The notes under the pieces are model-generated. The model did not search any database and was not told where the DNA came from. It worked only from the letters and a program-made list of their open reading frames with translations. From Opitutaceae bacterium (GTDB lineage: Bacteria; Verrucomicrobiota; Verrucomicrobiia; Opitutales; Opitutaceae), in the NCBI GenBank assembly GCA_002694885.1, contig NZNM01000056.1, positions 6,462 through 70,461 on the forward strand: DNA of 64,000 nucleotides. Direction: 5' to 3'. Of this stretch, positions 8,737 to 31,798 are shown one piece after another. The position numbers and the translations under genes were made by a program. Positions within the stretch are counted from its first letter, which is position 1. Each line of letters begins with the position of its first letter.

Positions 8737-8761
8737 GTAGGGAGGACCGGCTCGGTCCTCC
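8737..8761 (+). repeat. GTAG-capped REP hairpin, family GTAGGGAGGAC
   Basis: GTAG GGAGGACCG GCT CGGTCCTCC; related copies at 33696, 40541 and 40611. Confidence 0.8.
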
Positions 8762-8817
8762 ACTTTGGGTCGCGAATGCCGGTTCTCTTCTACTGATCAG
8801 GACCATTCCACCTGCGC

Positions 8818-9669
8818 CTAGGCTCGCCGTTTTCCTCCGGTCGCCTTTTGCCTGAATTCGGTTGGGGATTGGCCCGTTAGTCGCTTGAAGGTCTTGGAAA
8901 AGTGGAAAGGGTCGCAGAATCCGAGCTCGTCGGCCAGCTCTTGGAAGGTGTGCGTTCCCTGGTAGATGGCGGATTGGGCGAACTCAATTCGCTTCTGATT
9001 TTGGAATTTGGCGGGCGCGACTCCACGGGCCCTGGCAAAACGCTTTCGAAAGTTCTCGTAGCTTAAACCGACACGGCGAGCGACTTCCTCGGGAGCGATC
9101 CAGAGGCCCTCCATCGGTCCCGATAGCATCTCGGTCGCCGTATCGATTCGCGAGGCAGCGCTATCGATTTTGGCTTCCGAATCTCGAGTTTTCATTTCGA
9201 TTAGAAGCTGGCTGAATTGTCCGAGGATCTTGAGGCTTTGAGTAGGAAATCTATTTCGGGTGGAGTTTAGGCGCTCCTCTACGCGCTGATTCCAGTAGGT
9301 TATGCTATCGAGTTGCCATATTGGTTGACCGGGATCCAAGACACCCGCTTGCCTTAGCAATTCGAATTGAGGGCCATTGAAGATAGCGTAGGTGTGGGAC
9401 CAATCATTCTCCTGCATAGCCCCGTAGGCGTGGGCCAGCTCGGGAAAGACGATGATAGCGTCTCCAGTCTCGAGTTCCGTATCGATGCCGTGGGAGTCCT
9501 TGTAATAGGCAGTGCCGGATAGAATGAGAACTAGAGCATAGTCTCCCAAAATACGCATATTACCTGGATCGATGCCCGGGGTGTCATGGAGTTCGCCAGC
9601 GTGCAATATCGATCCTATTTCACTCGTAATAGGGGTTGAAACCCAAGTTTTGTATCGAGGTTTTTCCAC
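8818..9669 (-). CDS. AraC family transcriptional regulator
   Basis: N-terminal cupin-like ligand domain; C-terminal double HTH (EEVARRVGLSYENFRKRF; ELADELGFCDPFHFSKTFKRLTGQSP). Confidence 0.95.
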   Translation of the reverse strand: MEKPRYKTWVSTPITSEIGSILHAGELHDTPGIDPGNMRILGDYALVLILSGTAYYKDSHGIDTELETGDAIIVFPELAHAYGAMQENDWSHTYAIFNGPQFELLRQAGVLDPGQPIWQLDSITYWNQRVEERLNSTRNRFPTQSLKILGQFSQLLIEMKTRDSEAKIDSAASRIDTATEMLSGPMEGLWIAPEEVARRVGLSYENFRKRFARARGVAPAKFQNQKRIEFAQSAIYQGTHTFQELADELGFCDPFHFSKTFKRLTGQSPTEFRQKATGGKRRA

Positions 9670-9674
9670 TCTAA

Positions 9675-9725
9675 TTTTATCCCAAATTGTACATGCTTAT
9701 TCCCAAATCAACCATTTATTGGGAT
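9675..9725. promoter_or_regulatory. Candidate AraC-type operator: direct repeats at 21-bp period plus an inverted half-site
   Basis: CCCAAAT at 9681 and 9702 (21-mers match 13/21) and ATTGGGAT at 9718-9725, in the divergent intergenic region. Confidence 0.55.
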
Positions 9726-9774
9726 GCAGAGATGGGCTATCATTTCCCTGTTACCGCTTAAACCATTTCAGACT

Positions 9775-10698
9775 ATGAGCTCAGCAGCCACATTGCCTCA
9801 GTTCTACTCATACGAGCATGCTCTCGATATGGATCGAGACCGCATAGGAACGCTCCGCGAATCAGCAGATGCGGCCGACGATTTCGTCGAGTTAAGGCGA
9901 CGGCTGGAAACGGATGGCTACCTTTTCATGAAGGGATACTTGTACAGGGAAGAGGTGCTGGCGGCGAGAGAGGAGATCGCTCGAGCCATGGCTTCGAAGA
10001 ACTTGTTGGATCCAGATTTTCCGGAAATGGATATGCGTTGCCGACCCGAGGCCTCGATGGAGTTCATGCCAGAGATCGCCGCTGCCTGTCCGCAGGTTCA
10101 AAAGGTGCTCTACTCCGGTCGCCTGATCGATTTCTACAAGGGGTTTTATGGGGAGTCGGTCAAACACTACGATTTCACTTGGCTCAGGGCGATGCCTCCC
10201 GGCAAAGGAACCAACCCTCACACCGATCTTCCTTACATGGGCCGGGGCACCCACAACCATATGACCTGTTGGATGCCTTACGGAGATATTCCTTACGACC
10301 TAGGTGGATTGATGATTTTGGAAGGCTCTCACCGTCGGATGGATCTCCTCAAAAACTACGTGTTTCGCGATGTGGACGCGTACTGCGAGAACAAACCGGA
10401 GCAAAAGCAGCGGGCCGAAGAGGGAAAGTGGACCTTCACGGGGACGCTTTCCCACAATCCGCCTCGGGTTCGGGATAAGTTCGGGGGAAGGTGGCTGACT
10501 TCCGAGTTCGAAGCGGGAGATTTCCTCACTTTCGGCATGTTTGTGGTGCACGCGGCCGTAGACAATCGGTCCGATAACGTATTTCGAGTTTCCAGTGACA
10601 GTCGTTATCAGAGGGCAAGTGAGCCTATAGACGATCGGTGGGTCGGCGAGAATCCGCCCGGCCACTCGACAGCGGGCAAGCGTGGCCGCATTTGCTAG
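9775..10698 (+). CDS. Phytanoyl-CoA dioxygenase (PhyH) family Fe(II)/2-oxoglutarate-type dioxygenase
   Basis: HxD (PHTDLPY), distal His (VHAAVDN), R-x-S (RVSSDSRY), TCWMPYGD..GGLMILEGSH pattern. Confidence 0.9.
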   Translation: MSSAATLPQFYSYEHALDMDRDRIGTLRESADAADDFVELRRRLETDGYLFMKGYLYREEVLAAREEIARAMASKNLLDPDFPEMDMRCRPEASMEFMPEIAAACPQVQKVLYSGRLIDFYKGFYGESVKHYDFTWLRAMPPGKGTNPHTDLPYMGRGTHNHMTCWMPYGDIPYDLGGLMILEGSHRRMDLLKNYVFRDVDAYCENKPEQKQRAEEGKWTFTGTLSHNPPRVRDKFGGRWLTSEFEAGDFLTFGMFVVHAAVDNRSDNVFRVSSDSRYQRASEPIDDRWVGENPPGHSTAGKRGRIC

Positions 10699-10725
10699 AT
10701 CGCTTTCGATACGATACAGATTATC

Positions 10726-12045
10726 ATGCCTCAAGCGACATCATCTAGCCAAGCGGATTCCCGCGGTTCCAGGCGTATGGCTGCGGTAGGATCCGCGGTC
10801 AAAGGCCTCCGGGCTCTTTTCGAAGTGGAGCGAGAGATCGTGCGTTGCCTCACGACCTTCATCTATCGAGTTGGCGATATCGAATTAAAGTATTTGCTTT
10901 GCCAGCACGTTTGGGAATCGGCGGGGCATGCTCGGTTCATTCGAGAGCGCGGAAACGAGTTGGGCAGTTTTGGCAAGAACGAGGCGGCCCGTGAGGAGAT
11001 AAGGCGCATATTTGAAGAATCGATACGGGTTGACGATGAGATCGAAGGATTGGCTGCGTTCTACAGAGTCGTCAAAGGAGAGCTTTTATACGCGTATCGA
11101 AAATATTTGGACATAACGCATTCATTGGCTGATTGGCCCTCTCGCAAATTGGTTGAGGAATTCATTCAAGACGAAGAGAGGCATCAAGCTGAGATACAGC
11201 CATATATTGATTCTGCGGAGGACGCGGCCTGGGTTCAGCGATTGCGACTAGCCTTGAGTTCTCAAGGCGGTTGGCTCGGAGTCCTACCCAAAACCGAATC
11301 GCCGGACGATTTCAATTGGCGTTGGCCTGATTTGCCTTATCGCCATCCGGATACCTGCAACAGAGGCGATTATCCTGTGTGTTCCAGCGTTTTTGGATAC
11401 GATCCGGATGAATTCCCGATTTGTCGCGATTGGCTGGAGGATCCGAAAACTGATGCCCGAATCATTCGTCTAATGATCTATGTATGGCTAATGATGGAGC
11501 TCGACGCGGTCGATTACCTGTCGACGGTGTTCTATGAAACTCCGGATGCTCCTTTCGATCTCCATTACGATTTGGCCAGGCACTTGTGGGACGAGTCTCG
11601 CCATAGCGCATTTGGATTCCGTCAACTGCCTAAACTGGGCGTTGACCTCACGACGCTCGAGCATTCGTTGAGTCTCTACAATGTATTGATCCAAATGACC
11701 CCGCCCGAGCGCTATGCCATGATGACAATGGAGTTTGAAGCGGGTAGCTTTGGGACCAAGGCTCACATCATGGATCGTGTGCGTGAATTGAGCGATTTCG
11801 AGGCTGACACACTCCTGGCTTTCGACCGAAATGACGAGCAGCAGCACGTTCGTTATGGCCACCGATGGCTGCCAGTGATTATGGAGCTCTTCGAGATTGA
11901 TAAACCTGTCGATGCCTTCGTTGAGGAGACGCGCAAGCGATTCCAAGAGCTGGAAAAGACTTACGGAAAAATAACGCCACACAGCCTTAGCAAAGAAAAG
12001 CGTCTTACTGCGAAGAAACTCGTTCAGCTTGCGGGAGTCGAATAG
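10726..12045 (+). CDS. Tandem ferritin-like (DUF455-like) di-iron protein
   Basis: Four ExxH motifs in two modules: WESAGH and DEERH (N-half), WDESRH and NDEQQH (C-half), each with upstream Glu helices. Confidence 0.75.
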   Translation: MPQATSSSQADSRGSRRMAAVGSAVKGLRALFEVEREIVRCLTTFIYRVGDIELKYLLCQHVWESAGHARFIRERGNELGSFGKNEAAREEIRRIFEESIRVDDEIEGLAAFYRVVKGELLYAYRKYLDITHSLADWPSRKLVEEFIQDEERHQAEIQPYIDSAEDAAWVQRLRLALSSQGGWLGVLPKTESPDDFNWRWPDLPYRHPDTCNRGDYPVCSSVFGYDPDEFPICRDWLEDPKTDARIIRLMIYVWLMMELDAVDYLSTVFYETPDAPFDLHYDLARHLWDESRHSAFGFRQLPKLGVDLTTLEHSLSLYNVLIQMTPPERYAMMTMEFEAGSFGTKAHIMDRVRELSDFEADTLLAFDRNDEQQHVRYGHRWLPVIMELFEIDKPVDAFVEETRKRFQELEKTYGKITPHSLSKEKRLTAKKLVQLAGVE

Positions 12046-12120
12046 AGAGATCCGTTCCCATCGATAGATAGAGCGAGATGCTCATAGAGTGTCTAGCTAG
12101 CCTCTTTACAAATGCCGAAT

Positions 12121-12417
12121 GGCAGGGCTGATTATCCTTAGTCAGCCGTGTCTGTGAACCTCTCCTAACACGGCTGATCCCGCAACTGCGCATGGACGTC
12201 AACTTGAGCTCGCCCAGAGGTCGAGCTCCACGTTTCATGCTCCGGACTAGGGGTGGAACGCGACGTCCCGGCGCGTTCTATTAGGCTGAAATCAGTTAGG
12301 TTGAAGCGATCCCGCGACAGTGCGTTTTTTGCCAGATATAGTTTGCGAGACCGTATGCTCATCTGTGGAATCAGTCCTACCTCCCAAAGTAGGTTGAAGC
12401 GCCATCTCCTGCGCTTT
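12121..12417. repeat. Mosaic of several REP-like hairpins
   Basis: 12121-12147 GCAGGGCTGATTATCCTTAGTCAGCC; 12206-12231 (GTGG on minus strand); 12253-12278 GTGGAACGCG...CGCGTTC; 12389-12417 GTAGGTTGAAGCGC...GCGCTTT. Confidence 0.7.
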
Positions 12418-12496
12418 GAGTTATAGCTTGGCGAGTTTTTACGGTAATCTGTCTACGCCTCTTGAAACGCTAGGGTCTTAGCCGCAACTTCGGGGT

Positions 12497-13228
12497 ATGG
12501 GAGCGTCGAGAGTCGAAAATTCCAAACCTCATCCATGGGGCCGTTACGCCGAGCTGAGACCAGAGCAGATTTCTTCGATTCGAGAGCAGAGCAACATCGC
12601 GTTTGTTCCGTGGGGCGCCCTCGAGTGGCATTGCCAGCACGCTCCAATAGGATTGGACTCGACGAAGGCGGAGGGTATCTGTCTGGCAATCGCTCGAAGA
12701 GTCGGGGGAGTGGTGCTTCCAGCCATTCCCATGGGAGTCAATACGATCAAGCCATTTAAAGGCTTTCCTCATTCGATCGATTTCTCGGGCGATCTCGTCG
12801 CTGAGGTCGCTGCTGCCTTCTGCAATCAGCTAGCGGATGAGGGGTTCCAGATAGTCGTCCTGCTTACCGGTCACTATCCTCCGGAGCATGTGGCAGCCCT
12901 GGAAGAGGGAGCCAGCAAGGCTAGGGAGGCGTACCCAGATATTGATTTCATAGTCTGGGCGGATAATGAGCTTATGGGAGAGGCCTACAAAGGTGATCAT
13001 GCAGGGGCGACGGAAACTTCCTTTCAACTGCTCTTCGATCCATCGAATGTCGACCTAGAATCTTTGCCTGATCGTCCCCTGACGCTAGATGGCGATGGTG
13101 TTATGGGTGAAGATCCGAGAGACGCCTCCGAGGAACGGGGGCGTAGGCAGCTGACCATCGCAGTAGCCGCTGCGGTTGCCCAGATAGAGGCAATTCGCGA
13201 CAACGAGGATACCAATAAATCGCAATGA
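12497..13228 (+). CDS. Creatininase / creatinine amidohydrolase family protein
   Basis: GALEWHCQHAPIGLD, LTGHYPPE and DHAGATETS metal-binding motifs. Confidence 0.9.
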   Translation: MGASRVENSKPHPWGRYAELRPEQISSIREQSNIAFVPWGALEWHCQHAPIGLDSTKAEGICLAIARRVGGVVLPAIPMGVNTIKPFKGFPHSIDFSGDLVAEVAAAFCNQLADEGFQIVVLLTGHYPPEHVAALEEGASKAREAYPDIDFIVWADNELMGEAYKGDHAGATETSFQLLFDPSNVDLESLPDRPLTLDGDGVMGEDPRDASEERGRRQLTIAVAAAVAQIEAIRDNEDTNKSQ

Positions 13229-14187
13229 AGCTGAGACCTTTGGGAGAGACGGGTATGGAGTGCTCCGAAATTGGGTTGGGCACCTGGGCGTTGGGGAGCG
13301 GCGTTTATGGAGAAGTCGAACGAAACGAGGCTCATAACCTGATCAGCCAGGCTCTAGATTTGGGTATTAACTTTTTCGACACAGCGCCTCTTTACGGGAA
13401 TAAGAACGAAGATGGCGTCGCGGAGGTAGTGCTAGGGGAAGGTTTGGGGATACGCAAAGATCAGGCAATTATTTCTACCAAGTTCGGTCGAACAGCTCGT
13501 AAGGTCATGCCCCCGCGATTCAATGCGGTTGAAGCTAAGCGGTCATGTGATGAGAGCTTGAAGCGCTTGGGACGCGATTGGATTGATCTGCTCTTTTTTC
13601 ATTCACCTTTTGAAGCGGGCGAGATCGAGGACGACGTTTGGCAAGCTCTCGCGGAGCTAAAGGAAGCCGGAAAAATCCGATTCATTGGCCATTCGGTTTC
13701 CATGTATGATGATACCAAGGCCCTCTCTGAGCAATGGATGTCTGAGCGAAAGATAGACGCTATCCAGGTCGTGTTGAGTCCCTTCAACCGAGAAACCCGT
13801 CCACTAGTCGAGACCGCGGCCAAGTTGGGTCGGGCAGTTGTCGCCAGGGAGTGCATGGCCAACGGATTTCTTAGTGGCCAGATTCGTAAAGACACGGTTT
13901 TCCCGGAGGGTAGCCTCAATGCCAGGTATTCCAGGGAAGAGATTGCCGAACGGGTGGAATACGCCTCCGCTCTTTCGGAATGCCTAGTATCCGGTGAGAT
14001 CACTTCGCTCCCCCAGGCAGCTTATCGTTGGACCTTGGATCAGCCTGGAGTGTCGCTCGCCTTGGCTGGAGCTAGGAGCGTGGATGAATTGATGGATGGA
14101 ATCAGGGCTTCTCAGGCAGAAGCGTACACTTCGGAAACTCTCGAAGCTTCAGAAGTGATTCACAAAAAGGAGTTTAGCCCTGCTTAG
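13225..14187 (+). CDS. Aldo/keto reductase
   Basis: SEIGLGTW, FFDTAPLYG, IISTKFG, SLKRLGRDWIDLLFFH; overlaps the upstream stop (ATGA). Confidence 0.95.
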   Translation: MKLRPLGETGMECSEIGLGTWALGSGVYGEVERNEAHNLISQALDLGINFFDTAPLYGNKNEDGVAEVVLGEGLGIRKDQAIISTKFGRTARKVMPPRFNAVEAKRSCDESLKRLGRDWIDLLFFHSPFEAGEIEDDVWQALAELKEAGKIRFIGHSVSMYDDTKALSEQWMSERKIDAIQVVLSPFNRETRPLVETAAKLGRAVVARECMANGFLSGQIRKDTVFPEGSLNARYSREEIAERVEYASALSECLVSGEITSLPQAAYRWTLDQPGVSLALAGARSVDELMDGIRASQAEAYTSETLEASEVIHKKEFSPA

Positions 14188-14402
14188 AGGGTGCTCTGGG
14201 TGGGTTTGCCCTCTGTCCGCCGAAATTTGCCAGTAATTCCGTGTCTGGTTTACCGGAAAAACAGCTTTTTGATGACCAGCGGCCGAACCGCTCTAAGGTT
14301 TTCTGCAACGATGGGTGGGCTTCTCCTAATGATTACTCGATCCAATTGCTAGGTCAGCGATAATCGGGAAGAAATTTTTCCAGTTTGTCGTTGAACCCTT
14401 TC

Positions 14403-15701
14403 ATGGCCTCCAAGCACGCTGAACCCACTCCAATTAGACCCAATCCTCCCTTCAAAGTGGGATTGATAGGGGTTACCGGCTACGGATACGACTATTTCAA
14501 GTGCCTATCGAAACTGGTTGAACAGGGTCGCATCGAATGGGGGGCTGTTACGATAATCAACCCGGATGAGGCAAGGGAGCAGATTCAGATTTTCGAGAGC
14601 TTAGGCGTCCCTATCTACGCTGACTACCGGCAGATGCTCAAGATGGAAAGCCGAGCTTTAGACTGGGTTTGCATCCCCACTGGGATCGGTTTCCACAAGC
14701 AGATGGCAGTCGATTGCCTCAAACTGGGTCTGCAGACTCTCGTGGAGAAGCCCTTGGCCCCAGTCTTGCAAGAGGTCGAGGCTATACAGGATGCGGAGAG
14801 GGAAGCGAACATCGTGGCATCGGTTGGTTTTCAGCACACTTACGTCGAGGATACCTGGAAGATCAAAAAGCGCTTGCTGGAAGGGGCGATTGGCCAAGTA
14901 CAGCGAGTGGATTGCCTAGGGCTCTGGCCGCGATCCAGGGATTACTACCACCGAAACGAATGGGCCGGTAAACTGCGAGTAGGGGATTCCTGGATTCTGG
15001 ATTCGCCTTTCCATAACGGACTTTCCCACCTGGTTAATCTAATTCTTTTTTGGCTGGGGGATACTTTGGAATCAGGGGCAGATCCGAAACAAATCAGCGC
15101 CGAACTCTATCGCGCCAAAGATATCGAGTCTTTTGATACAGTGCGTACCGTGGCGACGACGGAAAGCGGCGTGGAAGCGGCGGTCACCGTTTCTCATAGC
15201 TCACTGCATAACATCGACCCGGAGATTCGGATTACTGGTACCGAAGGTCAATTGCTCTGGCGGTATAGCGGGGCGCATTCGCTAGTGAGCGACAATGGTT
15301 CCGAGACGATCGTATCCTCGAATCCAGTCGAAATCCGAGCGCTCATGTTTGATGCCGTTGTCGACCGAATAGGGGGCGCCAAGTCCCGAAACTGTTCGAC
15401 CAGGTTAGCGAAAGGCGTTTGCAAGTGGGCTAACGCTATTCACGACACCTGCCCGATTGAAGATATTCCTGATAGATTTCGAGTTAAGGTATCCAGCGAG
15501 AACGGCGAAGCTTTCGACGCTATCGATAATCTAGAATACATCGCCCTTAAAGCCCACAACGAAGGCATTTCCCTAAAGGCGGCGGGGGCGCCTTGGGCTA
15601 TAGAGCCGTTGGTTCGCGACGTAAGCGACTACAGAGAGTTTGAAGGAAAGCTCTGTCACCCGGTTGATGGAAAGGGCAAGATTGTCGAAATTTCCTCCTA
15701 G
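14403..15701 (+). CDS. Gfo/Idh/MocA family oxidoreductase
   Basis: VGLIGVTGYG Rossmann fold, IPTGIGFH, LVEKPLA, VGFQH. Confidence 0.92.
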   Translation: MASKHAEPTPIRPNPPFKVGLIGVTGYGYDYFKCLSKLVEQGRIEWGAVTIINPDEAREQIQIFESLGVPIYADYRQMLKMESRALDWVCIPTGIGFHKQMAVDCLKLGLQTLVEKPLAPVLQEVEAIQDAEREANIVASVGFQHTYVEDTWKIKKRLLEGAIGQVQRVDCLGLWPRSRDYYHRNEWAGKLRVGDSWILDSPFHNGLSHLVNLILFWLGDTLESGADPKQISAELYRAKDIESFDTVRTVATTESGVEAAVTVSHSSLHNIDPEIRITGTEGQLLWRYSGAHSLVSDNGSETIVSSNPVEIRALMFDAVVDRIGGAKSRNCSTRLAKGVCKWANAIHDTCPIEDIPDRFRVKVSSENGEAFDAIDNLEYIALKAHNEGISLKAAGAPWAIEPLVRDVSDYREFEGKLCHPVDGKGKIVEISS

Positions 15702-15763
15702 TCCGTATTTAGAGCCCTAATGCGGTTGCCAAATCAAAACGCGTCTGGCTACGCTCGACAAGT

Positions 15764-17035
15764 ATGATGAATAGAAAGGCTTTCATCGGCGCGCTCGGAT
15801 TGGCGGCGCCTACGGTTTTCACCGCTTCGTGCAAACGGAAAGAGGACTCCTCGAAAGCGTTGCCAGCTTTCGACGAGAGTCAGCCCCAAAGCTTTTGGCA
15901 AGCGGTTCAGGGTCAGTTTACATTGAGGGAAAATCGCGCTTACTTGAACTGCGGTGGTCTAGGTCCAGCTCCAAAAGTCGTTCAAGACAAAGTTGTTTCC
16001 AAGATGAGGGAGCTGCAATCCGTCTCGGAATCCGGTCATTCCATCCTCGGTGAAACCAGAAAGGTGGCTGCCCGATTTTTCGGATCAAGCGAAGACGAAA
16101 TCTGCTTCACTCGCAACGCGACGGAATCGAATTCGATCATCGCTTCTGGCATTCCGATGCAGGCTGGCGACGAGGTGATTTTCGAATCCCATGCTCACCC
16201 AGGTGGATCGTTTCCTTGGCTTAATCGGCAGAATATGGATGGGATTCGAGTAAAAGTATTCGATCCAGACCCGAGCTCTATGGATAATACGCTAAACCGT
16301 ATCAATGACTTAATTACGGATCGAACAAAAGCCATTCAAGTGAGCCATATCACGGCTCCGACAGGGATTCTCTTGGATGTGGAGGCGATTGGAAAGCTGG
16401 CTGAGGAAAAGGGGCTGTGGTTTCACGTGGATGGGGCCCAAAGCGCTGGCATGATACCGATCGACTTCGCCAATATGAAATGCCATTCCTACGCAACGAG
16501 CGGCCACAAGTGGATGGGGGGACCGCGTGGCACCGGTTTATTGCTAGTGCGCCAAGACAGGATCGAGTCTGTTGTATCCTGGCACGTGGGAGCTTACTCA
16601 GAGTCCGAGTTTGGATTGCCCGACCGGTTCAAATTGCGTCCAACGGCGCTCAGATTCGAATACGGTACCCGCAACTCGGAACTGATTGCTGGATTGGGGG
16701 CAGCTATGGAATTTCAAGAATCCATTGGTAAGGACAGGATTGATGAACGGTCGTCGTATTTGGCCAACAGGCTACGCGAGCAATTGGAGAAGATCGACAG
16801 CATAACGGTGCTTACTCCTAAAGATGCGTCCATGCGGCGGGCCATTACCACGTTCCGAAGCGACCGAATGGATTTCGACGAAATAAATAACAGATTGTCG
16901 CGCGAGTACTCGCTTCGCTGTAGGCGAGTGACCGAAGTAGGCCTGAACGCGGTACGCGTCTCGACCCACATTTTCAACAGCGAGCAGGACTGCGATCGAG
17001 TAGCCGAAGCAGTCGCTAAAATCGTGGTAGGGTAG
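15764..17035 (+). CDS. Aminotransferase class V / cysteine desulfurase / isopenicillin-N epimerase-like PLP enzyme with a Tat-like (lipo)protein signal
   Basis: YLNCGGLG, TRNATES, HVDGAQ, SGHKWMGGPRGTG (PLP lysine); N-terminus NRKAFIG...ASC. Confidence 0.88.
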   Translation: MMNRKAFIGALGLAAPTVFTASCKRKEDSSKALPAFDESQPQSFWQAVQGQFTLRENRAYLNCGGLGPAPKVVQDKVVSKMRELQSVSESGHSILGETRKVAARFFGSSEDEICFTRNATESNSIIASGIPMQAGDEVIFESHAHPGGSFPWLNRQNMDGIRVKVFDPDPSSMDNTLNRINDLITDRTKAIQVSHITAPTGILLDVEAIGKLAEEKGLWFHVDGAQSAGMIPIDFANMKCHSYATSGHKWMGGPRGTGLLLVRQDRIESVVSWHVGAYSESEFGLPDRFKLRPTALRFEYGTRNSELIAGLGAAMEFQESIGKDRIDERSSYLANRLREQLEKIDSITVLTPKDASMRRAITTFRSDRMDFDEINNRLSREYSLRCRRVTEVGLNAVRVSTHIFNSEQDCDRVAEAVAKIVVG

Positions 17036-17064
17036 TTATTTGTTCGATACCTGAAAACCGCTTA

Positions 17065-17616: not shown

Positions 17617-17839
17617 GATTTTGTGAAATTGGTCAAATCTTCGAGGACCGTCAACTGACTATCAATTACTATTGGGTAAAGAATCAAACCTTTTTGCATG
17701 TGGTATAATTGGCTTTTCGCAATAATGCAGCCATTCGACGGGTGGACGATCCGTCTAGTGCAGGAGGGCTAATAGACTCTCTTGGATGGTCAGCCTTGCC
17801 ATCGGAAAAACTCGATATCCACTTTCGATTCCATATCGT

Positions 17840-19753: not shown

Positions 19754-19763
19754 GCGGAAATCG

Positions 19764-20783
19764 CTACTTTCTAGAATTTGGGAGGAATACGAAGCTGTTG
19801 ATGGCGGATCCTTCGAGTCCGGCTTTCTTCCATGTTTTTCCGAAGTCCGAAGATTCGTATAGCGCCTTTTGATACAGGCTGGCAAGCAAGGTGCCCGAGT
19901 CGGGGTCGACGCCTACTCGCCAAATACGATGGGGCTTGGGTAGTCCCTCGTTGCGAGGCTTCCAAGTGGCTCCCCCATCTTCCGAAGCGAGAACGCCGTA
20001 AGTGTAGCTGCCGATCGCTAGGCGACCAGGATTCGTGGGGTCGAAAGCGATGTTGTACAAAGCGGCTTCGGAGGGGACTTGATCGAAGGCGGTCCAGCTT
20101 CTTCCTCCGTTGCGAGAGATATAGGCTCCCGCGCTTTGGGTTACAGCTGCCCAAATGTCGGGATCGTGAGGCGATTGCTGAACATCGTTGACCGTTTCTT
20201 CCGTGACCAAAGTCTTTCGCCAGGACCTGGCGTCGTTTTGGCTCAAATAAATGCCCGATTCGCAACCGGCCAGGATATGGCCCTTTCGGGAGCGGTCCAC
20301 CTCGATGGTTTGCGTGTATTTTCCACGGTCGGGGAGACCACGCTCTCGTTTCGTCCAGGTCATTCCACGATCATCGGATACCGCTATACCTCCAGGGTGG
20401 GCCAAGTAGACGCGATCGGGATTGTGCGGATCTACGCAAACATCTTTAGGCTCGGTAATATCCCAACTGGTCGTGACGCGCCAGCTATCGCCGCCATTTA
20501 CTGTGCGAAGCGCTCCATTCAAGGCTGCCGTATAGAAAGTATTGTGATCGCGAGGATCAAACGAGACGGCGAATATGCTGGGGTCGTTGATTCCGACATG
20601 GGCCCACTGCCCATTGGCCTGGCGTAGGTGCAGCCCGCTGGTGGTAGTGATCTTCGATCCGATTACGTAGTTCCGGTTGACGGCGGCGCAAACATAGAGG
20701 TCGTAAGTACGATCTTGTCCGATAGCAATAAGGGGCAGAAAAGAGGCAAGCAGTGCAGCTAGAGGGATAAATTTGAGAGACAT
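19764..20783 (-). CDS. Secreted BNR/Asp-box repeat beta-propeller protein A
   Basis: Signal peptide; repeated SxDxGxTW boxes (TVNGGDSW, SDDRGMTW, SRNGGRSW, SEDGGATW, SSDFGKTW). Confidence 0.85.
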   Translation of the reverse strand: MSLKFIPLAALLASFLPLIAIGQDRTYDLYVCAAVNRNYVIGSKITTTSGLHLRQANGQWAHVGINDPSIFAVSFDPRDHNTFYTAALNGALRTVNGGDSWRVTTSWDITEPKDVCVDPHNPDRVYLAHPGGIAVSDDRGMTWTKRERGLPDRGKYTQTIEVDRSRKGHILAGCESGIYLSQNDARSWRKTLVTEETVNDVQQSPHDPDIWAAVTQSAGAYISRNGGRSWTAFDQVPSEAALYNIAFDPTNPGRLAIGSYTYGVLASEDGGATWKPRNEGLPKPHRIWRVGVDPDSGTLLASLYQKALYESSDFGKTWKKAGLEGSAINSFVFLPNSRK

Positions 20784-20984
20784 GGTAGCTAGTTCCTATC
20801 TTGCGGACCGTTTCGCTGGCGTAAAGCGAGTCCTCCATTTTACGATACACCAGGCAAATACCTTTGTCGCTTAGGATAGCGCGTTAGTCGTAATCGGGCC
20901 CAATCGGAGTGATCCTATCTGAAGATATCGCCGCGTTAGCGGTGGCATGAGGCTGTTTGCCACAATCCCCAAATCTATACATCA

Positions 20985-21974
20985 ATGAAATCGAACGCGG
21001 TGGTCTTCAAAGACCGAAATCATGTGGTTTACGAATCGGTTGAATGCCCGGATCCAGGGCCGGATCAGGTAGTGGTCAATGTAACGCACTCTTGGATCAG
21101 CAACGGTACGGAAGGTTCGTATTTGCGGGGCGAACGGATTGAAGGGGATACGCCTTGGCGTCCGGGGGATCCGCATCCTTTTCCCGTCATCGCGGGCTAC
21201 CAAAAGGTTGGCTTTGTGGATTGGGTAGGATCCGAAGTGGATGGGTTGTCGAAAGGCGATTCGGTCTTTGTGTCAGTCAGCGCGGTAACCGATATGTTTG
21301 AGCCCCGCGGCGGCCATATTTCCCCGTCGGTATCGGGAGCGGGGGCCGTAATCAAATTGCCGCCGGGTTTAGACCCGGTTGCCTATTCGGGCCTAGTCCT
21401 TACTCAGGTGGGTTTCAATTGCGGTGATCGGCCGCGGTTGGAGCCTGGGGATCTCGCGGTAGTTGTTGGTGATGGTCTTGTCGGACAGTGGGCTGCCCAG
21501 ATGCTGGCCTCCCGAGACGCGAAAACGCTGCTCATCGGTAGACATGCGGATCGTTTGGCCAAATTTAAAAGCGGAGAGACGCTCCTCGAAGACGAGGGAG
21601 CCTGGGTAGATTTGGTTCGAGAGCGGTTCCCCGAAGGCGCTCAAGTTGGAGTAGACACCGTAGGATCCCTCAAAGTTATGGGGCAGCTAGAAAGCATGAT
21701 GAAGCGTTTTGGCCACCTGGTTTCCGCCGGCTTTTATGGTCCGGAGGATCGACTGCCATTGCAGCCGCCGCGCTATAAGGAGCTTTCGATCGACTTGGTT
21801 TCCGGTGCCACGCGAGAACGTCTGGAGAAAACCATGGATCTGGTTGCTCAGGAAAAACTGGATACGCTTTCGCTGATTACCCATCGATTTCCAGTGGAAC
21901 AGGCTGCTCAAGCATGGGATCTAATCGAGTCGAAACGGGAACCAGTGTTAGGGGTCGTACTAGAGTGGGTGTAA
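20985..21974 (+). CDS. MDR-family (zinc-binding) dehydrogenase, atypical SxGTE type
   Basis: GroES-like N-domain with ISNGTE and AGYQKVG; Rossmann VGDGLVG; LITHRFPVEQAAQAW. Confidence 0.85.
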   Translation: MKSNAVVFKDRNHVVYESVECPDPGPDQVVVNVTHSWISNGTEGSYLRGERIEGDTPWRPGDPHPFPVIAGYQKVGFVDWVGSEVDGLSKGDSVFVSVSAVTDMFEPRGGHISPSVSGAGAVIKLPPGLDPVAYSGLVLTQVGFNCGDRPRLEPGDLAVVVGDGLVGQWAAQMLASRDAKTLLIGRHADRLAKFKSGETLLEDEGAWVDLVRERFPEGAQVGVDTVGSLKVMGQLESMMKRFGHLVSAGFYGPEDRLPLQPPRYKELSIDLVSGATRERLEKTMDLVAQEKLDTLSLITHRFPVEQAAQAWDLIESKREPVLGVVLEWV

Positions 21975-21976
21975 GG

Positions 21977-22942
21977 ATGAAAGCGATACAGTACATAGAA
22001 AAAGGGCGTCCGGAAATCGTCGAGCTCCCCATTCCGCAGCCGGGAGAAGGCCAAGTTTTGGTTAAGATTTCCGGCGTGGCGACTTGTCCTCAATGGGATA
22101 TGCATATCATGGATGGCGTTCCCATGGCTCCCGGAGGCAAGTTGGAATATCCTTACACTCCCGGTCAGCCGGGACATGAGGCTACGGGCAAAGTGGCAGA
22201 GCTTGGTCCAGGAGTAACGGAGTTCGCAGCTGGTGATCGGGTTGCCTTTTGGCAAGACCAGGCTGGGGCTAAGCAGGGATGCTATGCCGAGTACGTCTTG
22301 GCTGATGTGGGCAACCTGCTTCAGGTACCCGGTTTTCTAGAACCTCAGGAGATTGCCTCCCTAGAACTGGCTATGTGCGTGCAGGTTTCGTTCGACCAGA
22401 TTCAGAACGTCGCTCCCATTAAAGACAAACGATTCGCGGTCGGTGGTTTGGGGCCTGCGGGCTTGGTGGCCATTCAACTTGCCAAAGCCCATGGGGCCGC
22501 CGAAGTGATCGCTTTCGACCCGGTAGAAAGCCGTCGTCAGTTGGGGGCTGAGCTAGGAGCGGATCGAGCCCTAGACCCGACCGACGAGGAGGCCTTTCCC
22601 CACGACCGCTTCAGTTCGGAGGCCATCGATCTCGCCATTGATTGCGTGGGCTTTCCTGCTTCCATCGAGTATTTGATGGGCAAGACGAAGGACATGGTCG
22701 CTCTTTTTGGCGTGTTGCGGGAAGACGTTCGCTTTGGCTTCAAGCATTGGTGTCGGGGCTTGCACTTGGTTGGGTATGGAACTCACAATCGAGGCGCTGC
22801 GGAGACCGCTTTAGATCTAATCGTTTCTGGCAAACTGAAATTGAAGCCACTAATCTCTAGAACCTTGCCCCTCGAATCCTATTCCGAAGGAGTCGCCTTG
22901 TTGCAAAAGCGGGAGGCGATAAAGGTGTGTTATATACCTTAA
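21977..22942 (+). CDS. Zinc-dependent alcohol/sugar dehydrogenase (MDR)
   Basis: ATCPQWD, PGHEATG, VGGLGPAG; start MKAIQY directly after the upstream stop. Confidence 0.9.
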   Translation: MKAIQYIEKGRPEIVELPIPQPGEGQVLVKISGVATCPQWDMHIMDGVPMAPGGKLEYPYTPGQPGHEATGKVAELGPGVTEFAAGDRVAFWQDQAGAKQGCYAEYVLADVGNLLQVPGFLEPQEIASLELAMCVQVSFDQIQNVAPIKDKRFAVGGLGPAGLVAIQLAKAHGAAEVIAFDPVESRRQLGAELGADRALDPTDEEAFPHDRFSSEAIDLAIDCVGFPASIEYLMGKTKDMVALFGVLREDVRFGFKHWCRGLHLVGYGTHNRGAAETALDLIVSGKLKLKPLISRTLPLESYSEGVALLQKREAIKVCYIP

Positions 22943-23037
22943 GCAGAACACCCTTGTGTTTTACCTTACACCGCAAAAATATTTGTAGTCTCGCCATTGC
23001 CTTCCCAGGAATCGCTATTGCTGCCTCCAAGCCGTTT

Positions 23038-24966
23038 ATGATCTCCCCATACCGCCTATTGCATTTTACGCGTTGCCTGGCTGTCGCGGCGATACTCGTC
23101 GGTAGCTCTGTCAACGGAGACGATAGCCCGCCGGTTGCCGAAATCAGCGAAGCCGATCTGGTCCACCAATATAGGGAGCGCTGCGACTACGTCATTGATC
23201 AAACGGTTGCCAACACCGATCCGAATGACCTGACACGGGGAAGCAATTTCACGATTGCGGCCAATCTCTTTCGTGGAGCAAACCTGGATTGGGCCAGGGA
23301 GCGGCTTCGCCTTTCCAACGACCCTCCAACAGGGGCCATGTTCTGGATGCATCCCATGGCCTTGCTGATGCATGTCGGGCGGGAAGAGCTCAACGAGGAC
23401 GACTGGGCTTTCATTCGCGAGCTTTGGCGAACCTACTTTCCGTATCGAGGGGACACGGAAAACCATTGGGTGATGTATTATGTGAGCCTGTATTTGGTGG
23501 CGGAAATGTTTCCCGATGCCGGTCCTGAAGCTTGGTACAACGGAAAATCCTCTGTGGAGATCATGGCGGATGCCAAGGAGTTCATTCTCGACTGGATGCG
23601 GATCACCACCTCCTACGGGCAAGGAGAGTATGATTCTCCCAACTACATAGAAGAGTACACCCGACCCATGGCATTGCTGGTAGGTTGGGCTCGCGATCCC
23701 GAATTGCAGCAGATGGGCAAGATGATGATGGACTACATCCTGCTCGATTATGCGGTCGAAAATCTGGGCGGCCTCTACGGTGGGGCCCACAGTCGGCTCT
23801 ATCCTCGATACTTGCTTCAACCGGGAATGGCTCACTCGGCTGCCCATGCTTGGCTGCTTTGGGGGCAAGGCGAGTTCAGCTCCAATGGGGGAACACTGAT
23901 GATAGCGATGAGTGGATACACGCCGCCTTCGATTCTGTTTAGGATCGCGTCGGATCGGGACAAGGCCTATGTCCACAAGGAGCTTAAGCGAACTCGTTGG
24001 CGGTTTAGGCACGCCGGGCCTAATGCATTCGAAGTGGATGGGAAGAGCACGATCCCCGTTTACAAGTATAGTTACGTACACCCGGACTTCATTCTCGGCT
24101 CATCTCAAGGAGGCCTGTTACAGCCTATTCAACAGCAAACATGGAGTTTGGTTTGGCGGGAGGAGAATTTGGAGGGCAAATCCAACACGATGTTTGGCCT
24201 ACAGCCCTATTCGTCTCCCATCGAAGGCACTATGTTTTTCAATTCCGATTGGGATACAGTCACCGATCTGATTGCCAGATCCAAAGTCGACTATGATTCG
24301 CCCGACAAGCTCGAAGGCGGTTCACCTTACGAGCAGGTTTTCCAGCACGAAGCGACCTTGATAGCCCTTTACAATATTCCTGAAGGTACGCGTTTTCCTC
24401 TTATCAGTACGCTGTTTTCCAGAGATGTGAATCGTCGGGTCGAAGACGAATCGGGATGGATTTTCGGACAAGGTGGTCCCGTCTACATCGCCTACCGGCC
24501 TTTTGCCCCAGGGGAGTGGAAACCAGTTGATTGGACAGGGCTGCTAAAAGGCGGAGCTGGGGCTTGGTTTAGCACAGGCTTCAAAGAATTATCCGAAGGA
24601 AGCGAGTGCCTGGTTAGCTACTCCTTGAAAAATGGATACATAGTAGAGATCGCCCCGGTAAGCGCATACGAAACCTACCGGGATTTCCAGGAAGCAGTAA
24701 GAGCTCTCCCAGTCGAGGTGCGTCTCGAGCCTACCCCTCGAGTCCGCTACACCAATCTGGATGGCGTTAAACTGGAGGCTGAGTACGGAAGGACACCTTC
24801 AGTCGATGGAGAGAATGTGGACTATTCCAGCTGGAAACTTTTCGATGGTCCCTTCGCCCAAGCGGAACGGGAAAGCCAGTCCTTGGAAATGATATACGGA
24901 TCCGAGCGCTATGTCTTGGACTTCAAGAATCGGAGCGCGGAAACATCCGTGGTAGAAAGCGAATGA
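23038..24966 (+). CDS. Secreted hypothetical protein, paralog B (RGDTENH family; possibly alpha/alpha-toroid lyase-like)
   Basis: Signal peptide; YRGDTENH, WYNGKSS, GQGEYDSPNY, GGAHSRLY, SPYEQVFQHE. Confidence 0.72.
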   Translation: MISPYRLLHFTRCLAVAAILVGSSVNGDDSPPVAEISEADLVHQYRERCDYVIDQTVANTDPNDLTRGSNFTIAANLFRGANLDWARERLRLSNDPPTGAMFWMHPMALLMHVGREELNEDDWAFIRELWRTYFPYRGDTENHWVMYYVSLYLVAEMFPDAGPEAWYNGKSSVEIMADAKEFILDWMRITTSYGQGEYDSPNYIEEYTRPMALLVGWARDPELQQMGKMMMDYILLDYAVENLGGLYGGAHSRLYPRYLLQPGMAHSAAHAWLLWGQGEFSSNGGTLMIAMSGYTPPSILFRIASDRDKAYVHKELKRTRWRFRHAGPNAFEVDGKSTIPVYKYSYVHPDFILGSSQGGLLQPIQQQTWSLVWREENLEGKSNTMFGLQPYSSPIEGTMFFNSDWDTVTDLIARSKVDYDSPDKLEGGSPYEQVFQHEATLIALYNIPEGTRFPLISTLFSRDVNRRVEDESGWIFGQGGPVYIAYRPFAPGEWKPVDWTGLLKGGAGAWFSTGFKELSEGSECLVSYSLKNGYIVEIAPVSAYETYRDFQEAVRALPVEVRLEPTPRVRYTNLDGVKLEAEYGRTPSVDGENVDYSSWKLFDGPFAQAERESQSLEMIYGSERYVLDFKNRSAETSVVESE

Positions 24967-25976
24967 AGCGGACGACTATAGCATATTTCATCTTCGTACT
25001 CGTTATGGGCTTCTCGCCGCTTGAGGCTGAGGAAGAGAGTACTCTATTTATCGCTTTCGCTATGACCAAGGCCCAAGAGGCTAGCTCGATTCCCACCGAC
25101 TCGGGTATCTATCTGCGAAGTGAAAAGGACAATTCTTGGCATCGCATTGGCCCAGTCATTCAGTCGATGAACAGCCTGGCTGTGGATCCCTCTGCTCCCG
25201 CAACTATATTCATGGCCTGCGGCAATGGGATCGTTAGATCAAAAGATGGCGGAGAGACCTGGCGAATGGTTACGGGATGGCGGGAAAGTGATTTTCTCAA
25301 GATCGCCATCGATCCAGAAAATGGGGACAATATATACGGAACTTCCGTTTGGGGCTTTCACCTGAGCCGTGACGGCGGCGAATCCTGGACCTCGGCCAAC
25401 AAGGGGCTGAACGAAAAATATTGTCGGACAATCATCGTCGATCATCGCAATCAGAGACGTCTCGTGCTCGGGACGGGAGACGGTATCTATGAGAGCCGAA
25501 ACGGTGGTGAATCCTGGACTCGTGTCCGCAGCTCGCCCGAATCGGCGATTCTGAGGATGGACCGAAGCTTGAATAATCCCGATCTTTGGATTGCCGGATC
25601 CGAAGGAGAAGGTGTGTATTTGTCTGCCAATGACGGAAAATCCTGGCGCCCCGTTGCCGAAACCTTGAGCGAGGCCAATGTTTACGGCGTTTCGCTCCAT
25701 CCTGAAAACGAGAATCGTATGGCGGCGGGAGGATGGAGCGAGGGGCTTTGGGTGTCAAATGATGGTGGGGATTCCTGGGAGGACCGAAGTTCAGGACTGC
25801 CTTCCCAAAACGTTACAGCCGTTGTATTCGATGAGAATCATCCCGATAGGCTATGGGTTTCGACTTTTGAAGAAGGCACCTATTACACGGATGACGACGG
25901 CAAGACCTGGAAAGATGGCGATTTGTATGGAGCCTATGTGTTCGATTTGGACTTTGTTACCAGCGCCAAAGAATGA
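24963..25976 (+). CDS. Secreted BNR/Asp-box repeat beta-propeller protein B
   Basis: Signal peptide; SKDGGETW, SRDGGESW, SRNGGESW, SANDGKSW, SNDGGDSW, TDDDGKTW; ATGA overlap with paralog B. Confidence 0.85.
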   Translation: MKRTTIAYFIFVLVMGFSPLEAEEESTLFIAFAMTKAQEASSIPTDSGIYLRSEKDNSWHRIGPVIQSMNSLAVDPSAPATIFMACGNGIVRSKDGGETWRMVTGWRESDFLKIAIDPENGDNIYGTSVWGFHLSRDGGESWTSANKGLNEKYCRTIIVDHRNQRRLVLGTGDGIYESRNGGESWTRVRSSPESAILRMDRSLNNPDLWIAGSEGEGVYLSANDGKSWRPVAETLSEANVYGVSLHPENENRMAAGGWSEGLWVSNDGGDSWEDRSSGLPSQNVTAVVFDENHPDRLWVSTFEEGTYYTDDDGKTWKDGDLYGAYVFDLDFVTSAKE

Positions 25977-25980
25977 TGCC

Positions 25981-26850
25981 ATGCCGTATTTCCGATCGGC
26001 TATTTGTCTGAGCTTTCAGGTTCTCCTGATATCCGCTTTATGTCTGGCGCTTTTAGGATGTATGGAAAATAGCGTTATAGATACTTTGCCTAGCGATAAC
26101 CAACGCGAAAATGTGAACGCCCTTTTGCTCAGCGCGACTACGAATCCGGGGCAAAAGTCTCTCGAACACGCGAAAGCCGATATCACGAAAACCTTTGGGT
26201 CAGTGAATCGCATATTGCTAATAAATTACGCCAGTCTCCCGAATAGGCGCGACGCCTATGCGAAACGAATGAAGCGAGAATTCGCTCAGATCGGCCCAGG
26301 CTACACAGTGAAATCCCTCCATGCCATCCCCGCTGACCAGCGTTTAGCTGCGGTCCGAGATACGGAAGGATTCTACGTTAGCGGAGGGAACACCTTCTTG
26401 CTTTTAAGGGAGCTCTACGGTGGCGATTTGCTTGTGGCAATCCGAGAGCGGGTCTTGCAAGGCGCCCCTTATGTGGGTTCCAGTGCGGGGTCGAACATCG
26501 CGGGCCAATTCATCGGCACCACCAACGATTTTCCCATAACCGACATCCCAACCCGCAGAGCTCTGGGATTGATGGCTGCCAATTTCAATCCGCATCACCC
26601 CGATCAAATAGCGGAGGAAGTCGAATTTGGTTTCCGCCAATACAAGATCGGGGAATATGTGGCCCATAACCAAGACGAAGTGGTGATTGGCGTGACCAAT
26701 CCAGGGATGCTGCGAATCCAGGGCAATATGCTCTCCCTTAGAGGAGAGGGCGGTACTGCCTATATCAGCTACCGAGGGGAAAAACAGACGGTGTCTTCGC
26801 TGGCGGACGGGGATATCTCCCGTGCCGTCGAATCATTGCGAAGCAGGTAG
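25981..26850 (+). CDS. pepE: Dipeptidase E (peptidase S51) with a lipoprotein signal
   Basis: VSGGNTFLLL, GSSAGSNI (nucleophile Ser), FNPHH; lipobox LALLGC. Confidence 0.85.
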   Translation: MPYFRSAICLSFQVLLISALCLALLGCMENSVIDTLPSDNQRENVNALLLSATTNPGQKSLEHAKADITKTFGSVNRILLINYASLPNRRDAYAKRMKREFAQIGPGYTVKSLHAIPADQRLAAVRDTEGFYVSGGNTFLLLRELYGGDLLVAIRERVLQGAPYVGSSAGSNIAGQFIGTTNDFPITDIPTRRALGLMAANFNPHHPDQIAEEVEFGFRQYKIGEYVAHNQDEVVIGVTNPGMLRIQGNMLSLRGEGGTAYISYRGEKQTVSSLADGDISRAVESLRSR

Positions 26851-31797: not shown

Positions 31798-31798
31798 A

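Follow-up and report, generated by a model that had tools for sequence, protein, structure and literature searches.

A recurring three-module gene neighbourhood in a marine Opitutales bacterium with a probable role in acidic glycan catabolism

Does the gene cluster at positions 8818–26850 of the stretch studied here work as one catabolic system, and on what kind of substrate? The stretch (the window, 64,000 nucleotides, whose numbering is used throughout) belongs to a marine Opitutales metagenome-assembled genome (MAG) of 3.7 Mb, and a sequence-only reading had described the cluster as a catabolic island with no recognisable known pathway. All 15 gene calls of that reading hold at their positions when checked by open reading frame (ORF) listing and by Pfam and NCBIfam profile scans of the window proteins, as does the gap that it described as filled with repetitive extragenic palindromic (REP) elements. 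The lack of a recognisable pathway was borne out: apart from PepE, none of the 15 proteins had an equivalog-level NCBIfam match, the other scores lying far below the cut-offs. Literature searches on PvdN with polysaccharide and Verrucomicrobia, on DUF6807/DUF455 and on glucuronate dehydratase/chondrosine did not find the gene set described. The answer that we favour, with moderate confidence, is that ~7641–26850, and probably the region from 2958, encodes one system of three modules, similar to a polysaccharide utilisation locus (PUL), that catabolises an acidic, probably sulfated glycan or glycoconjugate.

Three linked modules and their recurrence

For the comparison, 79 loci anchored on U640, the name given here to a family of secreted proteins of ~640 amino acids (U640a and U640b in the window), were taken from genome collections, and every window protein was mapped onto them. 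Longer regions were mapped in 13 genomes (9 + 4) for synteny. An order-wide sample of 150 genomes was drawn evenly from the order, with U640 present in 8 of them (~6%).

The region consists of three linked, separately conserved modules rather than one operon. Module 1 (M1) holds an AraC regulator, a PhyH-type dioxygenase, the ferritin-like protein DUF455, a creatininase-like protein, an aldo-keto reductase (AKR) and a Gfo/Idh/MocA oxidoreductase (Gfo). Module 2 (M2) holds a pyridoxal 5′-phosphate (PLP) enzyme exported by twin-arginine translocation (Tat), an exported Rid protein and the pair of U640a with its propeller BNRa. Module 3 (M3) has, in marine Opitutales, the order (heparinase II/III-like)–MDR1–MDR2–U640b–BNRb–PepE, where MDR stands for medium-chain dehydrogenase/reductase and BNR for a propeller protein. 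The whole set is essentially kept in G005, G001 and G004, and in these genomes, as in the window, the modules are adjacent. They are 8–36 kb apart in DG1235, G008, G010, G016, G019 and G020 (8–12 kb between M1 and M3 in DG1235 and G008) and 80 kb apart in the complete genome G150, where all parts lie within 120 kb amid many sulfatases; the genes between modules are unrelated and often encode sulfatases. The caveat of the sequence-only reading that there might be several sub-operons was thus well placed, given three modules, variable spacing and an M1 with its own regulator.

The cluster is nevertheless a real neighbourhood that recurs in other bacteria. In K14, a cultured Puniceicoccaceae isolate, AraC / PhyH–DUF455–creatininase–AKR–Gfo–HepII/III–U640b–BNRb–PepE runs in one direction as a single array whose gaps do not exceed ~175 bp. 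Tight arrays of ATP-binding cassette (ABC) permeases and a binding protein, the Tat-PLP enzyme, a TIM barrel, Gfo, BNR, U640 and PhyH were found in L029 and L030 (Rhodothermales), in L114 (an unplaced 8.1-Mb contig of the European Nucleotide Archive) and in L032 and L035 (unplaced MAGs), with a GH88-like protein, a cupin, a second Gfo and PhyH and an FGGY kinase nearby. The arrangement recurs across phyla and in marine, hypersaline, freshwater and soil habitats. The sequence-only reading had named a failure of the genes to co-occur elsewhere as telling against it; this was looked for, and the genes do co-occur in other genomes. In the 150-genome sample, U640-positive genomes accounted for 5/5 orthologues of the PLP enzyme (P = 9e-8), 4/5 of MDR1 (P = 1.7e-5) and 2/2 of DUF455 (P = 2.5e-3), these hypergeometric values being naive in that they ignore shared ancestry. 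DUF455 orthologues were present in 18 of 23 genomes picked for having U640.

The label of island was not borne out in the sense of horizontal transfer. The GC content of the region (0.50–0.55) is the same as that of its flanks, the only AT-rich part being the adjoining islet at 28–32 kb, and the block is collinear in related species; a horizontally acquired genomic island was therefore ruled out on composition and collinearity, integrases, tRNA genes and boundary repeats not having been searched.

Exported enzymes of modules 2 and 3

By inspection, Sec-type signals were assigned to U640a/b, BNRa/b and Rid; PepE has a lipobox and the PLP enzyme a Tat motif. No export signal was found on MDR1/2, Gfo, PhyH, DUF455, the creatininase-like protein or the AKR. 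Exported and cytoplasmic proteins are encoded side by side in arrays such as M3 and L114, close enough for translational coupling, and the layout proposed from the sequence alone, periplasmic release followed by cytoplasmic processing, agrees with this: exported U640, BNR, PLP enzyme, Rid and PepE share arrays with an ABC importer and with MDR, Gfo, TIM-barrel and PhyH proteins of the cytoplasm. The U640/BNR pairs and the remaining genes of M3 are as follows.

17840–19753, reverse strand: U640a, secreted; no Pfam or NCBIfam match, fold taken from the U640b model
19764–20783, reverse strand: BNRa, secreted BNR/Asp-box beta-propeller, partner of U640a (Pfam BNR, Sortilin-Vps10, PSII_BNR)
20985–21974, forward strand: MDR1, cytoplasmic medium-chain dehydrogenase/reductase, distantly BchC-like (Pfam, NCBIfam)
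21977–22942, forward strand: MDR2, Zn-type MDR dehydrogenase, distantly Tdh/IolM-like (Pfam, NCBIfam)
23038–24966, forward strand: U640b, secreted protein with a predicted lyase fold (AlphaFold2 model)
24963–25976, forward strand: BNRb, secreted BNR propeller, 4-bp overlap with U640b (structure model)
25981–26850, forward strand: PepE, lipoprotein of the S51 peptidase family, 4 bp after BNRb (PF03575, 8.3e-36)

U640 had no Pfam, NCBIfam or Protein Data Bank (PDB) sequence match by phmmer or hmmsearch. The family has at least 1438 relatives, all labelled 'hypothetical' save one automatic UniRef label, 'Heparin-sulfate lyase N-terminal domain-containing protein', and amounts to at least 2639 clusters in a library of 50%-identity representatives (E ≤ 1e-3). 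The window paralogues share 35% identity (U640a/U640b) and 31% identity (BNRa/BNRb). An AlphaFold2 model of U640b, with a mean predicted local distance difference test (pLDDT) of 87.7, is helical from ~35 to 305 and beta from ~310 to 640, and the sole significant Foldseek matches were polysaccharide lyases (PL), namely PL15 (3a0o), PL33 (8r6z), PL17 (4ojz, 7bm6), PL8 (2wda) and GAGase VII (8khw), with E values of 1e-6 to 1e-4. The fold of these lyases is an (alpha/alpha)n toroid followed by an antiparallel beta-sandwich; the two domains of the U640b model match this architecture in their order of secondary structure, but at low template-modelling (TM) scores of 0.33–0.37. As modelled, U640 may resemble polysaccharide lyases in its two-domain fold. 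It differs from them in having no sequence or profile similarity, in its conserved residues, which are not the Asn-His/Tyr set, and in its near-constant BNR propeller partner or fusion; we know of no BNR propeller partner of PL15, PL17, PL33 or PL8 lyases. A deep alignment conserves E141, E197, Y203, R253, R324, E432, Q436 and Y445, with Y203, R253 and R324 at least 90% conserved. In natural fusion proteins a BNR propeller precedes or follows U640, and other members carry CBM9 or BACON/CHB_HEX_C, which argues for a carbohydrate-active domain working with the propeller.

The BNRb model (pLDDT 91.5) is a seven-bladed propeller whose best PDB matches were 3b7f (TM 0.73), single domains of the glycoside hydrolase (GH) family GH74, DAIP and Ycf48. 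BNRb would be a catalytic or a binding subunit, and the fold matches do not decide which. In the Rhodothermales MAG L029 (6150–11821), two tandem BNR-U640 pairs are present, the first without signal peptides and so apparently cytoplasmic, the second exported; the enzyme may accordingly act in both compartments. A further protein, c20, of ~530 aa and with no Pfam match, was seen directly upstream of BNR-U640 in L032 (4451–6064) and L035 (7012–8604) and a few kb off in L114 (7334–8914) and G150 (region 24154–25722).

As for the other genes of M3, MDR2 starts 2 bp past the MDR1 stop codon and is always paired with MDR1, and MDR1 orthologues were found beside U640/BNR pairs. PepE, with its true start at 25981 and the lipobox LALLGC, scored 170.6 bits against a cut-off of 156 for NF003642, which makes it a dipeptidase E by the equivalog threshold. 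Escherichia coli PepE is cytoplasmic, unlike the window lipoprotein. PepE keeps its place after BNRb in 8 loci, and 17 freshwater loci have an M28 peptidase in the cluster instead, usually directly after U640.

The other two genes of M2, which are convergent, are as follows.

15764–17035, forward strand: class-V PLP enzyme of SufS/PvdN type, Tat-exported (PF00266, 7.3e-57)
17065–17616, reverse strand: exported Rid (YjgF) protein of the imine/enamine deaminase type (PF14588, 2e-25)

By inspection, the leader of the window PLP enzyme has a Tat-like RK-x-F followed by Cys. An RR/RK-x-F motif was found in 34 of 39 orthologues, the remaining five being ORFs with an over-extended start. Lys248, Asp222 and Arg398 are conserved over the 39 orthologues and Cys386 is not. 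We take Arg398 to correspond to the SufS arginine that binds the alpha-carboxylate, and the Cys386 loop, equated by eye with the SufS motif rather than by a computed alignment, presumably corresponds to the SufS Cys364 loop. A role as cysteine desulfurase was ruled out because Cys386 is not conserved, and the score against the SufS/CsdA equivalog was 154 vs 475 bits. The retained residues, the Tat signal and the missing Cys suggest, from sequence features, an exported PLP enzyme acting on an alpha-amino-acid-type substrate. The PvdN model NF051467 aligns end to end, Tat signal included, at 133.9 bits vs a cut-off of 650, and PDB matches to SufS (1e-33 to 1e-27) and PvdN (1e-25) place the enzyme about equally distant from both.

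PvdN is a Tat-exported periplasmic PLP enzyme of pyoverdine maturation whose substrate is reported to be an amino acid with free alpha-amino and alpha-carboxyl groups that is tethered to a larger molecule (Ringel et al., 2016; Drake and Gulick, 2016; in PMC11794154). The window enzyme shares with it the class-V fold, a similar length and Tat export with bound cofactor, and neither is a desulfurase. It differs in being paired with Rid and glycan enzymes, in the absence of pyoverdine genes nearby and in a score below the PvdN equivalog cut-off.

The Rid protein has a signal peptide, the YjgF fold and the active-site arginine motif GRHARAA, which aligns with 3d01; by these sequence marks it belongs to the Rid family. 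Its PDB relatives are 3d01 and the Rid proteins PA0814 and ACIAD3089. The Rid gene comes after the PLP gene in most Opitutaceae loci. Wherever the strand was readable (L063, L077, G020, G123 and the window), Rid is antisense within an otherwise co-directional PLP-BNR-U640 array; G004 has no Rid, the space from PLP to U640a being taken up by genes for a GxGYxYP protein and a small secreted protein. The M2 array of freshwater and soil Opitutaceae comprises LacI, unknowns, a GH78-like protein, DUF6807, Tat-PLP, antisense Rid, BNR, U640 and an M28 peptidase. In the complete Opitutaceae genome G123 (C1:302980–317076), three BNR-U640 pairs, GH78-like, DUF6807, PLP and Rid form one 15-kb run, and a fourth U640 lies elsewhere on the chromosome.

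Module 1 and the left edge of the cluster

M1 and its left neighbours contain the following features.

2958–5276, reverse strand: wB_772, 772 aa, outside the cluster as first drawn; no family match, placed by synteny
5635–7836, reverse strand: FG-GAP / UnbV_ASPIC repeat protein, conserved left neighbour (Pfam)
7641–8642, reverse strand: xylose-isomerase-like TIM barrel, AP_endonuc_2 (Pfam 1.2e-24)
8818–9669, reverse strand: AraC-family regulator of M1, divergent from PhyH (Pfam)
9775–10698, forward strand: PhyH-type Fe(II)/2-oxoglutarate (Fe/2OG) dioxygenase, cytoplasmic (PF05721, 7.6e-11)
10726–12045, forward strand: DUF455, ferritin-like, internal duplication (PF04305 at residues 256–408; weak Ferritin match at 53–163)
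12106–12285, no strand: REP-like hairpin elements between DUF455 and the creatininase-like gene (inverted repeats)
12497–13228, forward strand: metal-dependent hydrolase of the creatininase family (PF02633, 5.9e-36)
13225–14187, forward strand: AKR, 4-bp overlap with the creatininase-like gene (PF00248, 3.6e-50)
14385–15701, forward strand: Gfo, NAD(P) oxidoreductase (Pfam)

The core of M1, AraC/PhyH-DUF455, is never split, and marine lineages add creatininase-AKR and usually also Gfo. The divergent order is kept in G005, G004, G008, G009, G010, G016, G017, G019, G123, G150 and K14, and PhyH, whose HxD motif is H166/D168, adjoins DUF455 in every genome mapped. DUF455 had been described from the sequence alone as a tandem di-iron protein. 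The internal duplication holds, and 'tandem di-iron' goes too far: the ExxH motifs at residues 290 and 371 give a complete pair in the C-terminal half, and the N-terminal half has only the one at 150. The creatininase-like protein, whose top PDB match was creatininase (5.5e-11), falls far under the equivalog cut-offs of creatininase, MftE and IolN; its gene is accompanied by the AKR gene in marine lineages. Gfo has no signal peptide, and its sequence cluster also occurs beside PhyH-c20-BNR-U640 in L032 and L035. PDB searches with the creatininase-like protein, MDR1, Gfo and wB_772 gave remote superfamily matches or none.

The gap between DUF455 and the creatininase-like gene (12045–12497, 452 bp) contains hairpins, and the segment 12106–12285 has 10–25 further copies in the genome. 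The wide gap is shared with G005 (~390 bp), the closest relative mapped. In G009, G004, G008 and K14 the spacing is 25–85 bp, and in G010 the genes overlap, so that an ancestral operon boundary at this gap was ruled out. The suggestion that REP-filled gaps could mean several sub-operons was right as to the existence of modules; the REP gap itself marks no old boundary between them.

The sequence-only reading set the bounds of the cluster at 8818–26850. The genes within these bounds stand, and the left edge does not, the conserved block running further left, to at least 7641 and probably to 2958. The TIM barrel at 7641–8642 belongs to the system although it lies outside 8818–26850: its sequence cluster (cluster 13) recurs in PLP-BNR-U640 arrays of Rhodothermales and related loci, 9 in total, and in L114 an AP_endonuc_2 gene occupies the equivalent position. 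The FG-GAP/ASPIC gene is syntenic beside the TIM barrel and AraC in G005, G004, G008, G010 and G150. Further left, wB_772 had no Pfam match and no PDB sequence match; its homologues (35–63% identity) adjoin AraC-PhyH-DUF455 in G150 and in G123, the latter with two tandem copies, and the G010 region also holds a relative. In G102 a homologue lies ~5 kb from an AraC1-like gene, with neither PhyH nor DUF455 detected in the region. wB_772 is probably another enzyme of the system.

Two known enzyme pairings bear on M1. Oxidation-elimination cleavage of glycosides is carried out by a Gfo protein together with a xylose-isomerase-like TIM barrel in systems of the DgpA/DgpBC, LgdA/LgdB and BT2157-2159 type. 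Genes of these two families are adjacent in L029 and L114, and in the window they lie close together. The NCBIfam matches are weak (glycoside 3-dehydrogenase 39/750 bits, levoglucosan dehydrogenase 34/650 bits), and the further partners here are unrelated to those systems. The succession of PhyH and a di-iron-type oxygenase with a local regulator is also like PhnY/PhnZ and TmpA/TmpB, in which an Fe/2OG hydroxylase is combined with a di-iron oxygenase; DUF455 differs in being ferritin-like rather than an HD-domain protein, and the window has a glycan-catabolic setting and no phosphonate genes.

Glycan context, rival explanations and a proposed route

The wider neighbourhood appears devoted to sulfated glycans. 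In relatives, sulfatases are encoded nearby, as are GH78-like, heparinase II/III-like and GxGYxYP proteins, a sugar kinase and LacI. The window itself has three S1 sulfatases (32242–33681, 47698–49344 and 49516–50838), along with DUF1501/DUF1553/PSCyt proteins, a GSDH-cytochrome c fusion, a DHDPS-type aldolase and a LacI regulator. The glycan or glycoconjugate substrate suggested earlier fits this context, with its sulfatase, GH78-like and heparinase II/III-like genes, and the fusion of U640 relatives to CBM9 or BACON; the accompanying idea of an N-acylated or methylated sugar was supported by no test made. A MetE-like Meth_synt_2 gene follows PhyH in L114 (20299–21281), and a MetE-like ORF, judged from its N-terminal sequence alone, is present in the same array of L030 (13765–14808); these genes are a hint that the pathway may involve chemistry of methyl groups. 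On its right the cluster ends at an islet directly after PepE (26952–32240, GC 0.40–0.42) with a second AraC and a TonB siderophore-type receptor (28250–30334), and among the mapped relatives islet homologues lie beside the cluster only in G005.

Compared with PULs and sulfated-glycan clusters of Verrucomicrobiota (fucoidan or rhamnan type; PMC8857213, as ecological background), the locus is alike in its clustered exported depolymerases, sulfatases and receptor or ABC uptake, its cytoplasmic sugar redox enzymes, its local AraC/LacI regulators and its patchy distribution among relatives, as expected of accessory genes; it differs in that its central enzymes (U640, the BNR partner, DUF455 and wB_772) are uncharacterised. 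The cluster resembles a PUL without SusC/SusD or recognised families of carbohydrate-active enzymes (CAZymes) in its core. It departs from the Bacteroidota type, as no SusD or Pfam-recognisable SusC was found in 1–34 kb, where the only recognised receptor is the siderophore-type one, and no recognised GH or PL family was found within 8818–26850. The system, which spans two compartments, would do largely without classical hydrolases. Known PULs do not, to our knowledge, include an exported PLP enzyme or an exported Rid.

From the observed gene content, export signals, predicted folds, fusions, co-occurrence and repeated co-localisation we infer the substrate, each reaction and the order of the steps. 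In the periplasm, two diverged two-part enzymes, each a lyase-fold U640 with a BNR propeller, would cut the polymer or its oligomers. The Tat-exported PLP enzyme would act on an alpha-amino-acid-type group attached to the substrate, the exported Rid would hydrolyse the resulting imine or enamine, and the S51 lipoprotein, with an M28 peptidase in the cluster of freshwater relatives, would trim peptide or amino-acid remnants. The presence of an exported peptidase in both lineages, S51 in marine and M28 in freshwater ones, suggests such remnants in the substrate, and the glycan may carry amino acids or peptides. A candidate alternative for the PLP/Rid step is the dehydration and deamination of an aminoaldonate such as glucosaminate. 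In the cytoplasm, Gfo and the xylose-isomerase-type TIM barrel, MDR1/MDR2 and the AKR would perform oxidation-elimination and keto-reduction on the sugars, and the AraC-controlled PhyH, the DUF455 ferritin-like oxygenase and the creatininase-like hydrolase would strip a blocking substituent by oxidation and hydrolysis.

Several results weigh against one glycan-degrading system. On the enzymatic side, the U640b–lyase TM scores are low, comparison of U640 with the neighbouring heparinase II/III-like (Hepar_II_III-type) proteins by hhalign gave a probability of 0.1%, and the candidate Asn-His pair N142/H143 is not conserved in the deep family, where several Glu are, so that lyase chemistry is only putative and U640 could be a lyase or a hydrolase. 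Within 8818–26850, no gene was recognised as encoding a transporter. As for co-regulation, no RNA runs containing the stretch were found, only DNA metagenomes, and a scan for sigma-70 promoters and terminators was uninformative, sites being no commoner than in shuffled sequence. Outside the order, the PhyH found in arrays of Rhodothermales is a member of a different subfamily (23% identity) and DUF455 has just weak relatives there, which places recurrence in Rhodothermales and L-type arrays at the family level. Bryobacterales loci hold just U640 and BNR, and the co-occurrence statistics share the limit given above.

Other points of this kind favour a different explanation, in which three operons that have nothing to do with each other (one for an oxidative small-molecule pathway, one for the glycan enzymes U640/BNR and one for generic dehydrogenases) are adjacent through slow decay of an ancestral Opitutales order. 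Module spacing ranges from 0 to 80 kb with unrelated genes between; M1 has its own AraC, and M2 of freshwater Opitutaceae has a LacI nearby; in G123 megabases separate the DUF455 module from the PLP-U640 cluster, and every U640 copy is distant from it, the fourth by 270 kb; and a planctomycete (Pirellulaceae) homologue of the PLP enzyme has no U640 nearby. Descent alone does not sit well with K14, where M1 is joined with U640b-BNRb-PepE in one array, with the same families appearing in a different order in Rhodothermales and L114-type loci, or with the near confinement of DUF455, PLP and MDR1 orthologues to the 6% of genomes in the order-wide sample that have U640, and we regard it as unlikely. 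It is far less probable still that the cytoplasmic half cleaves the ring of a cyclitol or keto-sugar by a route unrelated to any polymer, of the Thermotoga IolG/IolM/IolN/IolO type. That route comprises a Gfo dehydrogenase, an MDR dehydrogenase, a creatininase-family diketone hydrolase and a TIM-barrel epimerase, and the corresponding matches were recovered here (Gfo-IolG 2.5e-15, MDR2-IolM 1.1e-28, creatininase-like-IolN 1.9e-5, TIM barrel-IolE 1.3e-4). Their bit scores fall well below the equivalog cut-offs (56/355, 100/450, 24/245 and 22/290 for IolG, IolM, IolN and IolE), the four genes sit in different, separately travelling modules, and PhyH, DUF455, PLP, Rid, U640 and BNR would be left unexplained. 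The same low standing, or marginally lower, applies to a non-catabolic role in which the exported PLP/Rid/U640/BNR set tailors a periplasmic product of the cell itself, a siderophore as with PvdN or an envelope polysaccharide. The full-length PvdN alignment including the Tat signal, the PvdN PDB match of 1e-25 and the AraC gene and TonB siderophore-type receptor just downstream (26952–30334) speak for it. Against these stand a PvdN score of 134 bits vs a cut-off of 650, the AT-rich composition of the receptor islet (GC 0.40–0.42), which among the mapped loci lies beside the cluster only in the closest relative, the catabolic nature of the recurrent neighbours (sulfatases, GH78-like, ABC sugar-type binding protein, sugar kinase, LacI), and the 79 loci, in which no genes for nonribosomal peptide synthetases or siderophore synthesis were seen.

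Returning to a three-module glycan-catabolic system, we raise tentatively, and regard as rather doubtful, a more specific version: a largely non-hydrolytic route, not yet described, for an acidic glycan carrying amino acids or peptides, be it proteoglycan-like, a glycopeptide or an amino-acid-decorated exopolymer. U640 and BNR would cleave the backbone in the periplasm, where the PLP enzyme and Rid would remove the tethered alpha-amino-acid group by elimination or deamination. No other periplasmic PLP/Rid pair with a part in glycan catabolism is known to us, so that this one would be the first. A precedent for PLP chemistry on glycosyl-amino acids is LmbF, which performs a PLP-dependent beta-elimination on S-glycosyl-cysteine (PMC11794154). 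In the cytoplasm, the Fe/2OG dioxygenase, the ferritin-like oxygenase, the creatininase-type hydrolase and Gfo/TIM-barrel oxidation-elimination would open the blocked sugars.

The cluster gathers at least four uncharacterised families, U640, its BNR partner, DUF455 and wB_772. Among the major consumers of recalcitrant polymers from algae and microbes are Verrucomicrobiota and Rhodothermales, in which many degradative genes lack annotation. Cultured carriers of the system are known in Puniceicoccaceae K14, Verrucomicrobiae DG1235, Pelagicoccus SDUM812002/812005, Synoicihabitans lomoniglobus and Actomonas aquatica. Once the substrate is identified, a new CAZyme family could be defined, and possibly also a chemical logic, new as well, by which decorations are taken off glycans.

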